Below, one piece after another: positions 13,112 to 23,216 of a stretch of 64,000 nucleotides of DNA. The notes below the pieces were generated by a model, which searched no databases, was not told where the DNA came from, and saw nothing but the letters and a program-made list of their open reading frames with translations. How positions within the stretch are numbered: the stretch's first letter is position 1; each line of letters begins with the position of its first letter. The position numbers and the translations under genes are program-made. The stretch lies in IMG/VR virus record IMGVR_UViG_3300050343_000159; one strand, given 5' to 3'. The stretch is from a virus (lineage: Duplodnaviria; Caudoviricetes).

Positions 13112-13164
13112 AATAAACCAGTTACTTGTGTTGGTTTCAACATAAGTGTTTATACTTACTCCCC

Positions 13165-13270
13165 TTAAACCAAGACCTATAGGGAGTCTAAAAACGTCTT
13201 TAATACCTGTATCTAAGGGTGATACAGGAATAGTAAAACCATCATTTCCCTGATGATCTTACTTTTAAGT
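13165..13270 (+). ncRNA. Structured psbA leader, probably the PhotoRC-II RNA motif
   Basis: AAGAC/GTCTT, CCTGTATC/GATACAGG, AGTAA/TTACT and ATCA/TGAT helices directly 5' of a phage psbA; family name is from recollection. Confidence 0.6.
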
Positions 13271-21725: not shown

Positions 21726-22040
21726 ATGCTATCGACCAAGTATCGGCTTCGGCTTGAATTTATCTGTAAGTGTATTGCTAGTGGTGAGGAAGTAAAACTA
21801 GATGATATGGTTTGGGCACAGAAACTTGCTAAAGCAAATACATCTGCTAATGAGATGTTAAAGAAAGCAAGACGACAATCTTCTCAAGATATTGAAGAAG
21901 GTAGTACCGACGATTTTCTGAATAGGATGGGTTTAGGAGACCCCGATCCATCCAATCATAAAACGGGGTTTAGTAGTGCTGATGATATCAAGGACTGGTT
22001 TAAACAAGACAAACCTAAGGATTGGAGACAGAGGGACTAA
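21726..22040 (+). CDS. Conserved hypothetical protein
   Basis: MLSTKYRLRLEFICKCIA...FKQDKPKDWRQRD; late-like box AATAAATA upstream. Confidence 0.6.
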   Translation: MLSTKYRLRLEFICKCIASGEEVKLDDMVWAQKLAKANTSANEMLKKARRQSSQDIEEGSTDDFLNRMGLGDPDPSNHKTGFSSADDIKDWFKQDKPKDWRQRD

Positions 22041-22273
22041 TGCAATCAGTAATCTATTCGAATAAAAGTCAAGAGTGTGAGAGAGCTATCATGCTTCTTT
22101 CAAATGTCCATGAAGATTTTCATGAGTATATTCTAGATGAAGACTTTACTGACAAACAATTTCATGCAGAGTTCGGTGATACAGCAGAGTATCCACAGAT
22201 TTCTATTGGGCTGAAACACAGAGGTGGATTGAAAGAAACCCTTCAGTTCATGAAAGATAACAATATGTTCTAA
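22040..22273 (+). CDS. Degenerate glutaredoxin-like protein
   Basis: YPQISIG..HRGGLKET thioredoxin-fold tail; only one Cys (SQEC). Confidence 0.5.
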   Translation: MQSVIYSNKSQECERAIMLLSNVHEDFHEYILDEDFTDKQFHAEFGDTAEYPQISIGLKHRGGLKETLQFMKDNNMF

Positions 22274-22275
22274 CC

Positions 22276-22305
22276 TTGACATAAATAGTGTAGAAGTGTT
22301 ATAAT
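22276..22305 (+). promoter_or_regulatory. Sigma70 promoter with an embedded late box, driving the riboswitch locus
   Basis: TTGACA (22276-81), 18-nt spacer, TATAAT (22300-05); CATAAATA at 22280-87. Confidence 0.75.
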
Positions 22306-22312
22306 AACACTG

Positions 22313-22543
22313 TCGTTCATCAGAGGTAACTCTGACGCAAGTAAGTTGACTCGGAACGGAGCGTTCATCCTATGGTTGATTTCTTTTTATATACAACACT
22401 CAGTTGTTCTGATGCCGATAGCATTATGCTACGGATGAGGAGTAATGATGATCTTAACGCTCAAGTTAGGATTGAATTGGTGGAGGTTCTAAAAGAATCT
22501 ACACCAGAGTGTCCATGGGACGCAAAAGGCAACTGAAGGAACG
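22313..22543 (+). ncRNA. glnA-type glutamine riboswitch element (tandem or nested architecture)
   Basis: CGTTC/GAACG P1 strands and GACGCAA junction each occur twice; P2 TCAGAG-GTAA-CTCTGA; AGTA...GAAGGAACG E-loop halves. Confidence 0.7.
22372..22536 (+). CDS. 54-aa ORF nested inside the riboswitch
   Basis: MVDFFLYTTLSCSDADSIMLRMRSNDDLNAQVRIELVEVLKESTPECPWDAKGN*; GGAG RBS at 22358-61. Confidence 0.65.
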   Translation: MVDFFLYTTLSCSDADSIMLRMRSNDDLNAQVRIELVEVLKESTPECPWDAKGN

Positions 22544-22577
22544 GGGCCTAAAAATCCAACTACTTCAGGAGTATCAA

Positions 22578-22712
22578 ATGAAAGTCACGTATCGTGGTGT
22601 GTCGTATGACACAGTTGAGTATCAGAACAGACCCCAAGTTACCAAAAAAGTAACTGAAGTCTATCGTGGTATCAATCACACCGAAACTGTAAAAGTGGAG
22701 GTATCAAAATGA
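22578..22712 (+). CDS. DUF4278-family small protein (GifB/IF17-related motif)
   Basis: MKVTYRGVSYD and a second YRGINH repeat; AGGAG RBS at 22567-71. Confidence 0.75.
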   Translation: MKVTYRGVSYDTVEYQNRPQVTKKVTEVYRGINHTETVKVEVSK

Positions 22713-22816
22713 ATATACTTGCCATCGAGCAAAGAAAGATTCTCAAGAAAAAAGCTATCAAGGTAGCTCAACTTGAGTTGACTAAGAAAACACTTGTTTG
22801 TTCTAACAACAAGTGA
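22709..22816 (+). CDS. 35-aa basic peptide
   Basis: MNILAIEQRKILKKKAIKVAQLELTKKTLVCSNNK*; GGAGG RBS, ATGA overlap with the DUF4278 gene. Confidence 0.55.
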   Translation: MNILAIEQRKILKKKAIKVAQLELTKKTLVCSNNK

Positions 22817-22823
22817 TATAATT

Positions 22824-22848
22824 AAGGGAGGTAATACTCCCTTTTTTT
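22824..22848 (+). terminator. Terminator closing the riboswitch operon
   Basis: AAGGGAG-GTAATA-CTCCCTT followed by a T-run. Confidence 0.8.
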
Positions 22849-22849
22849 A

Positions 22850-23011
22850 ATGGAAAAAGATAAACTCAAACTAATAACCAGAAACCTAAGACTGTTGGTA
22901 GATGCGCTGGAGTCTGAAGTTTATTCTGATGTAAAGGCTTATACTGAACGAATGGAAGAGACACTTCCTCCTCTCCCAGATTATGATGAGGTATTTGAAG
23001 ATGATGAATGA
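22850..23011 (+). CDS. Small conserved hypothetical protein
   Basis: MEKDKLKLITRNLRLLVDALESEVYSDV...DYDEVFEDDE*. Confidence 0.6.
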   Translation: MEKDKLKLITRNLRLLVDALESEVYSDVKAYTERMEETLPPLPDYDEVFEDDE

Positions 23012-23216
23012 TTGGAGATACACCGATGAAAGAATGAAACTAAGGGGTGTTTGCTTATCGATTCTTCTAAATAAGTATGGTGGAGCAAGGATTGAAGAAG
23101 CCTCCTACTCAACCAAAGATATTTACGAATGCGTTGATACCTGGGTCAGTCAAGGGAATAAAATCTCTCATGGTATCGAACCTTACTTTAAGACTTATTT
23201 TTCTAACACCACTTAA
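23004..23216 (+). CDS. Small hypothetical protein
   Basis: MNDWRYTDERMKLR...IYECVDTWV. Confidence 0.55.
   Translation: MNDWRYTDERMKLRGVCLSILLNKYGGARIEEASYSTKDIYECVDTWVSQGNKISHGIEPYFKTYFSNTT

Follow-up and report, generated by a model that had tools for sequence, protein, structure and literature searches.

A probable interlaced glutamine riboswitch with two nested cores and an enclosed gene in the leader of a cyanophage DUF4278 operon

The locus and its operon

The window, by which we mean the whole stretch of 64,000 nucleotides analysed here (IMG/VR virus record IMGVR_UViG_3300050343_000159), derives from a T4-like cyanophage. In it, a promoter and an intrinsic terminator flank a small operon made up of a leader with a nested ORF, a gene of the DUF4278 family and an ORF for a lysine-rich product of 35 residues (Table 1). 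A TATAAT hexamer is found at an equal distance in homologues of the window leader, and transcription should start a few bases upstream of the first P1 strand. The assignment of the regulated gene to DUF4278 (PF14105) is by a Pfam score of 28.7 bits for 22578-22709, past the curated cutoff of 25.3. No family match to the 35-residue ORF was found among Pfam and PHROG profiles, and in other phages its position is taken by different genes or by none. The upstream ORF (22022-22273) is thioredoxin/glutaredoxin-like (phrog_22, E 1e-12, with a weak match to Pfam Glutaredoxin), and in other phages the doublet of riboswitch-like units described below is located after nrdB or nrdC-type genes. At 13147-13241 the window also contains a PhotoRC-II RNA, a full-length match of 71.1 bits (gathering score 39). 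Marine metatranscriptome contigs from three studies extend over the operon (window 22189-23200, one contig corresponding to 22241-22866), such contigs revealing no RNA ends and DNA carry-over being possible.

Table 1. Features of the operon and of its leader, with positions in the window and leader elements in RNA letters
Feature	Position	Strand	Remarks
Sigma-70-type promoter, TTGACA-18-TATAAT, TG before the -10 hexamer	22276..22305	+	12/12 hexamer matches
Outer P1 5' strand CGUUC, unit 1 core positions 1-5	22314..22318	+	partner 22539-43
P2a hairpin UCAGAG-GUAA-CUCUGA, outer core	22320..22335	+	many compensatory changes
CGC linking strand, then AAGUA, the 5' E-loop half	22336..22343	+	last C of CGC pairs with G 22544
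P3 5' strand AGUUG (+ACU)	22344..22351	+	pairs with 22527-34, 175-181 nt away
Inner P1 hairpin G-GAACG / GAG / CGUUC	22353..22366	+	22354-58 with 22362-66
P2b 5' strand UCCUAUGG	22368..22375	+	holds nested-ORF start AUG 22372-74
Nested ORF, 54 aa, phrog_504	22372..22536	+	ATG 22372 to TGA 22534-36
P2b 3' strand CCAUGGGA, then CGC, the inner-core linking strand	22513..22523	+	codes for Pro-Trp-Asp-Ala
P3 3' strand (AGG)CAACU	22527..22534	+	overlaps last codons and U of stop
Alternative anti-Shine-Dalgarno (anti-SD) helix, CUGAAG 22533-38 with CUUCAG 22563-68	22533..22568	+	overlaps SD AGGAG 22567-71
GAA 3' E-loop half, G, outer P1 3' strand GAACG 22539-43, G 22544	22535..22544	+	covariation
DUF4278 gene, 44 aa, IF17-like, two YRG motifs	22578..22712	+	PF14105, regulated gene
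Lys-rich ORF, 35 aa	22709..22816	+	overlaps DUF4278 stop (ATGA); same operon
Intrinsic terminator, end of operon	22824..22850	+	from the sequence

RNA elements of the leader

A preliminary description of this DNA, made from the letters of the window alone, had listed the motifs of two riboswitch-like units in the leader, and all of them are present, correct to the base. Unit 1 includes GACGCAAGTA, which has its end at 22343. In DNA letters, unit 2 opens with CGTTC (22362-66) and TCCTATGG (22368-75), the latter having its partner CCATGGGA at 22513-20, and ends with the 3' strands CAACT (22530-34) and GAAGGAACG (22535-43). The GAA at 22535-37 consists of the second and third bases of the stop codon and the A following it, and the inner P1 hairpin is composed of the 3' P1-type strand of unit 1 and the 5' P1-type strand of unit 2.

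It had been claimed that each half of the element is incomplete on its own, and this agrees with the outcome of the Rfam search that the preliminary description had proposed as a check, which recovered the first unit but neither reached threshold nor extended to the second. At the gathering threshold no riboswitch match is obtained in the region. At a relaxed threshold only the first unit appears: the Rfam Glutamine model matches 22312-22362 and nothing else, with 29.4 bits (gathering score 35) and an E value of 2e-4, missing the GAA, and there is no Rfam match to the 3' half of the element. The Glutamine-II model (RF01704) has no match in the window at E<=10. Among the homologues, either unit reaches 25-31 bits with the Rfam Glutamine (cutoff 35) and Glutamine-II models alike, below threshold, indicating that each has the core common to both classes, without the peripheral helix of either.

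Homologous loci

About 250 unique homologous cyanophage loci were compared, in three sets. The first consists of 80 loci retrieved from IMG/VR with the ORF protein as sole query, blind to the RNA, and in all 80 the ORF is flanked by the same set of RNA elements. Addition of loci found by RNA pattern gave the second set of 219 unique ORF-bearing loci, 183 of which are parsable at every element, and the third comprises 66 unique doublets without the ORF. The RNA patterns used for part of the collection fix some of the core bases, so that the unbiased loci are the 80 found by protein only. With region 22022-22850 as query, blastn yields matches in 357 GenBank records of Synechococcus and Prochlorococcus phages; taken with the RNA elements present around the ORF in 80/80 protein-found loci, these matches place the arrangement far beyond chance.

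ORF-less forms of the nested doublet are common. They comprise L146 (892-980), L183 and some 60 further IMG/VR loci (L086-L528), measure 82-100 nt and all lie directly upstream of YRG / DUF4278 genes; these doublets are the best material for biochemistry. A three-unit arrangement is seen in L194 (6503-6850): units 1 and 2 both belong to the 5' type, the second carrying a 67-codon ORF within its hairpin, and they are followed by a unit of the 3' type (unit 3), whose UGACU pairs with AGUCA of unit 2. One near-invariant hairpin, UUCGCUAUUCGCAAAUAGCGA, serves as P2b of many ORF-less doublets (L101, L143 and L446, for example) and is also present inside P2a of some ORF-bearing loci (L096, L191 and L197), its conservation far exceeding the needs of a stem.

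Partners of the P1-type strands

The window has all four P1-type strands alike, and their pairing is therefore decidable from homologues only. The preliminary description had envisaged two mutually exclusive folds, one with both units paired side by side as imperfect aptamers, the other with P1 closed across the ORF around a long-range P3, the inner hairpin and P2b, giving one complete aptamer. In the order outer 5', inner 3'-type, inner 5'-type and outer 3', the strands of the 183 parsable ORF-bearing homologues occur in three states: CGUUC/GAACG/CGUUC/GAACG (108 homologues), CGUUC/CAACG/CGUUG/GAACG (67) and CGUUU/CAACG/CGUUG/AAACG (8). The nested assignment is Watson-Crick at both informative pairs in 183/183. 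At the outer pair, position 5 versus 36, C:G is present in 175 and U:A in 8, with no mismatches; at the inner pair there are 108 C:G and 75 G:C, as GAACG/CGUUC or CAACG/CGUUG and in no case mixed. The side-by-side assignment, in contrast, leaves both helices mismatched in 75 of the 183: the first helix then contains C.C or U.C and the second G.G or G.A. No match was found when IMG/VR was scanned for an altered inner CGUUD accompanying the canonical inner GGAACG, and the reciprocal scan for an altered GHAACG always gave GCAACG with CGUUG among the 120 matches listed.

The long-range pairs may be followed in the 66 ORF-less doublets. Position 19 of unit 1 and position 41 of unit 2 form C:G in 49 and G:C in 17, without a single mismatch; the equivalent pair in the window, which closes P1, is C 22338 with G 22544, and it likewise exchanges C:G for G:C in homologues. 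Position 19 of unit 2 and position 41 of unit 1 form C:G in 64, the other two cases being parsing errors. This position 19 stays C, facing the invariant first G of the inner hairpin loop (22359 in the window), and the remainder of that loop is variable (GAG, GAGC, GTTC, GAAC, GAT and others). Side-by-side pairing would give G.G and C.C at the long-range pairs in 17 of the 66. Given 48 ORF-less doublets as structure-free input, RNAalifold returned the nested outer P1, P2a, inner P1 and P2b, and in the same set 12-19 sequences per pair of P2a are altered on both sides. Comparison shows all the nested helices and both long-range pairs, and the nested fold of the preliminary description is the one preserved by covariation.

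These data bear on another reading of the locus, that of an ordinary pseudo-cooperative tandem in which two independent glutamine riboswitches stand side by side. Precedents exist: 157 glutamine doublets have been counted as pseudo-cooperative tandems (PMC9481103), and the cellular doublets L384 and L392 consist of two complete aptamers in series, joined by a linker. The phage units, unlike these, have no P3 of their own and only half of an E-loop each, the linker between them is just 3-4 nt, and all the partner-specific covariation contradicts side-by-side pairing. The reading is highly improbable, being contradicted by the mismatches in 75/183 and 17/66 homologues. The three exchanges in P1 and the long-range pairs probably represent few evolutionary events passed on to many sequences.

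In the preliminary description, side-by-side pairing was one state of a toggle, glutamine or ribosomes choosing between two imperfect aptamers and one complete one and hence between two peptides. The identity of the four P1 strands in the window would permit such an exchange of strands. Neither of the side-by-side P1 helices is supported by covariation, however, and the 75 ORF-bearing homologues that mismatch both of them stay paired in the nested fold, just as both side-by-side long-range pairs are broken in the 17 ORF-less doublets; the side-by-side units, without P3 or a complete E-loop, also fall below threshold in both Rfam models. The toggle was further thought to hide a GGAG ribosome-binding site under the inner hairpin of the nested fold, a claim that the homologues do not support, for GGAG is not conserved and only the first loop G is kept. 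We regard this toggle as unlikely, and a second conserved fold with side-by-side pairing found no support in the comparison.

P3 and P2b

P3 is AGUCG/CGACU in the main clade and AGUUG/CAACU in the clade of the window, a compensatory change at pair 4, which is C-G or U-A in the homologues. Compensatory or wobble changes affect pairs 1, 2, 4, 5 and 8 in all. Within the ORF-bearing set, where the evidence on P3 comes from few independent events, pair 2 occurs as G-C or G.U and pair 5 as either of these or as A-U, and in some clades a three-base insertion on both strands makes a longer helix with U-A or A-U at pair 8. In the ORF-less set, the 3' strand being free of coding constraint, pair 8 may also be G-C, and wholly different P3 helices are encountered (GGCUAACG/CGUU-G-AGCU and AAACGAC/GUUGUUU). 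Duplex energies calculated for 33 distinct strand pairs average -4.68 kcal/mol for cognate and -2.74 kcal/mol for non-cognate strands (permutation p<=5e-4). A mismatch at pair 3 is kept in some clades, as C.A in 18 ORF-bearing loci and as A.C or A.A in some ORF-less clades. The GAA half of the E-loop becomes AAA in most homologues with a UAA stop, and the E-loop is non-canonical in that part of the family.

For P2b, pairing of the core UCCC(A)/(U)GGGA is maintained in nearly all of 201 sequences; exchanges of U-A to C-G and of C-G to U-A, and G.U intermediates, occur across the ORF. The start codon of the nested ORF directly follows this core, its A forming the fifth P2b pair. Covariation of the long-range P3 and of the P2b pair had been named in the preliminary description as checks, and both came out in favour of the nested fold, with compensatory changes and more stable cognate strands in the former and the U-A/C-G exchanges in the latter.

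Two further pairings were considered and rejected. Local P3 hairpins of two base pairs (AG-UUGA-CU and AG-GCAA-CU) can be drawn for the clade of the window, but they are impossible in the main clade, and the covariation of pair 8 is seen under long-range pairing only. A P2 of the glutamine-II type with the 3' tail (AGGC/GCCU in the window) is, by inspection, not conserved in other clades. The segment after CGC pairs with unit 1 and not with the 3' tail, and there is no conserved complementarity to the tail, so that the H-type pseudoknot of glutamine-II is absent.

The nested gene

The nested ORF matches the phrog_504 profile over residues 1-52 of 54 (E 1.2e-24). Some 200 diverged homologues, 49-67 codons long and with identity down to 13%, keep the frame open; two Cys residues are invariant, and the lengths of indels are multiples of three. 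Over codons 2-48, pS is 0.65 and pN 0.25. It could be argued that the frame is no gene, but merely a long, variable P2b loop that is open by chance: it has no Pfam family and no named homologue, and its Shine-Dalgarno sequence is not conserved. Against this stand the frame open at such divergence, the invariant Cys pair, the indel lengths, synonymous change far above non-synonymous and the phrog_504 membership, which together make the chance reading scarcely credible. By these signatures of its sequence, the nested ORF is a real gene.

Codons 49-53 behave differently, pS dropping there to 0.06. Near the end of the ORF, GAC is used in 104/105 and GCA in 105/105 sequences, whereas GAU and GCU are the preferred codons elsewhere in the ORF, and GAC GCA AAC GAC is fixed at synonymous sites. 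The statement in the preliminary description that the 3' codons overlap an aptamer strand is thereby reinforced. Since these last codons are at the same time the P2b 3' strand, the CGC and the P3 strand, it is the RNA that dictates the C-terminal (W)DAxD, and the synonymous constraint on GACGCA shows the inner core to be important at the RNA level.

An AlphaFold model of the protein is a two-helix hairpin with a pLDDT of 77, for which Foldseek found nothing in the PDB below E 4.7. Pfam has no family for it, protein searches led to unnamed hypothetical proteins only, and a search of cellular genomes found no such protein.

Two nested cores

From 5' to 3', the order of elements is CGUUC-A-P2a-CGC-AAGUA-P3(5')-C-G-GAACG-G+2-3 nt-CGUUC-A-P2b[ORF]-CGC-AAA(AGG)-P3(3')-GAA-G-GAACG-G. 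We propose that 22314-22544 is probably one interlaced RNA, in which two nested sensor cores share P3, a gene is accommodated in P2b and the DUF4278 gene is switched by glutamine. The outer part would be a glutamine-I-like three-way junction of P1, the P2a hairpin and the E-loop with P3. The latter, without a terminal loop, would lead into a second three-way junction formed by the inner P1 hairpin, A 22367, P2b and CGC 22521-23. All elements of glutamine-I are present in the outer junction. The inner junction has the same conserved core elements in the same cyclic order, but its opening is on the P3 side and its closure at the P1 end, a circular permutation. Neither this complete, permuted inner core nor the ORF-less doublets had featured in the preliminary description, whose assignment of the RNA to the glutamine-riboswitch type is itself upheld by the conserved core nucleotides.

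In both solved glutamine riboswitch classes the ligand is contacted by C1:G40, by the triple of G2:C39 with G18 and by the long-range pair C19:G41 (PMC6698751). The equivalents of C1:G40, of the triple and of the long-range pair are present in both junctions of the phage element, invariant as core elements. This points to two putative ligand sites sharing P3, and glutamine is put forward as the probable ligand solely from the identity of these conserved core nucleotides.

Alternatively, the outer junction might be the single functional aptamer, with the inner hairpin, P2b and CGC acting as a ligand-free scaffold or as an element of translation control. Every glutamine-I element is to be found in the outer junction alone; the inner junction has AAA opposite C and no E-loop, and its long-range G would pair from within a hairpin loop of 3-4 nt, which may be strained. 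The inner junction nonetheless keeps its core nucleotides A6, CGC and first loop G invariant, and GAC GCA is frozen at synonymous sites where, with a single aptamer, it would be merely part of an insert in P3. The inner core is kept in the ORF-less doublets too, which means that the ORF is not the reason for its presence. A single functional site seems to us doubtful.

Expression platform and translation of the nested gene

When glutamine is absent, the anti-SD helix would hide the Shine-Dalgarno sequence of the DUF4278 gene. Comparison supports this predicted pairing, the covariation being situated at the second base of the stop codon: in UAA it always faces U (79 sequences), in UGA it faces C (45) or U (46), and A.C never occurs. 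In the clade with outer U:A (L213, L250, L260 and five more) the anti-SD helix has 9 bp, CUGAAGAAA/UUUCUUUAG, and extends into the outer P1 strand, making P1 and anti-SD pairing plainly exclusive in that clade.

For the window leader 22312-22585, the computed minimum free energy structure (-79.4 kcal/mol) includes the anti-SD helix and a local 5' P1 (22314-18/22354-58). The nested fold, at -73.4 kcal/mol, lies 6 kcal/mol above it in the nearest-neighbour calculation, a difference for which tertiary and ligand energy must pay; this is the pattern expected if the ligand and tertiary contacts drive an ON switch. The computed structure also lends the toggle considered above some substance, a first half resembling the side-by-side fold being a reasonable ligand-free state, and in the window's own sequence such a first half may indeed form part of that state.

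Both classes of glutamine riboswitch have been found by experiment to be ON switches, and DUF4278 genes are their usual targets (PMC6212724). In the phage leader, glutamine would lock the nested fold and so remove GAAG-GAACG from the anti-SD helix, turning translation of the DUF4278 gene on. The product would be an IF17-like protein, a candidate inhibitor of glutamine synthetase.

The gene enclosed by P2b would add a second level of control. Its start codon belongs to the P2b 5' strand, and its last five codons and stop would double as the P2b 3' strand, the inner linking strand, the P3 3' strand and the E-loop. A ribosome on the nested gene would melt P2b at initiation and P3, the outer P1 and the anti-SD helix at termination. 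Given the size of the ribosome and the helices to be melted, a single molecule would be unable to fold as the sensor while its nested gene is being translated. The placement of the start codon in P2b and that of the stop codon in P3, the E-loop and the anti-SD helix are both conserved. Translation of the ORF could affect DUF4278 expression in either direction, since the anti-SD helix, too, would be opened by a ribosome that terminates there. Only tentatively, as a possibility with rather less than even prospects, do we suggest the complete scheme, in which both cores bind glutamine, phrog_504 is translated only while the sensor is unfolded, and glutamine switches between production of phrog_504 and of the IF17-like protein.

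Comparison with known systems

Of the known RNAs, glutamine-I (RF01739, the glnA RNA, exemplified by the Synechocystis gifB leader; PMC6212724) resembles the element in its CGUUC/GAACG P1, the A and P2 hairpin closed by GA-CG, the AAGUA and GAA halves of an E-loop around P3 and the long-range pair ending P1. It shares, too, the position upstream of a DUF4278/IF17-like gene and the alternative helix occluding the SD of an ON switch. (The glutamine-I structure of Ren et al. 2015 is taken here as summarised in PMC6698751.) In glutamine-I, however, P3 is a local hairpin, whereas in the phage element it is long-range, over 175-181 nt, and leads into a second junction. The long-range pair of the phage element is C:G, the polarity of glutamine-II, and not the G:C of glutamine-I; its score is 29.4 against a required 35 bits; and a protein gene lies inside the fold.

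Glutamine-II (RF01704, the Downstream-peptide motif; PMC6698751) has in common with the phage element the pocket nucleotides C1-C5, G18, C19:G41 and G36-G40, the C:G polarity and the setting, namely marine picocyanobacteria and phages with YRG/DUF4278 peptides downstream. The phage element differs in having no P2 helix to the 3' tail, and hence no H-type pseudoknot, and in scoring 25-30 bits in homologues against a threshold of 33, with no RF01704 match in the window.

With tandem riboswitches (those for glycine and the glutamine doublets of PMC9481103) the element shares two cores for the same ligand before one gene, and a sharper response is plausible; unlike theirs, its cores are nested, share a helix and include a circularly permuted one. 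A further parallel is the group I intron that carries a homing-endonuclease ORF within a peripheral loop, where a structured RNA likewise tolerates a gene and translation competes with folding. The phage element, in contrast, has neither catalysis nor mobility, and the ends of its ORF overlap conserved sequence of the putative ligand pocket.

In the literature accessible to us, which did not extend to Ames & Breaker 2011 or Ren et al. 2015, we found no description of a nested doublet or of a gene inside an aptamer. Judged by its conserved core and pairing, this element constitutes a new structural variant among glutamine riboswitches, widespread in cyanomyoviruses and with a fold strongly supported by comparison.

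Implications

Three properties of the proposed RNA would be new for riboswitches: aptamer cores interlaced through a shared helix, one of them circularly permuted; a conserved protein gene within an aptamer helix; and codons of that gene doubling as nucleotides of a ligand pocket. The nested architecture accounts for the failure of standard covariance models to detect such elements in hundreds of cyanophage genomes, and suggests that the phage 'tandem' glutamine riboswitches of surveys are single nested structures. If the two-site reading is true, the element would be a natural sensor in which a normal aptamer and a circularly permuted one have a helix in common, and one short transcript would yield phrog_504 or the IF17-like protein according to glutamine. 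A candidate glutamine synthetase inhibitor and a small protein would be put under the direct control of nitrogen status during infection of marine Synechococcus and Prochlorococcus.
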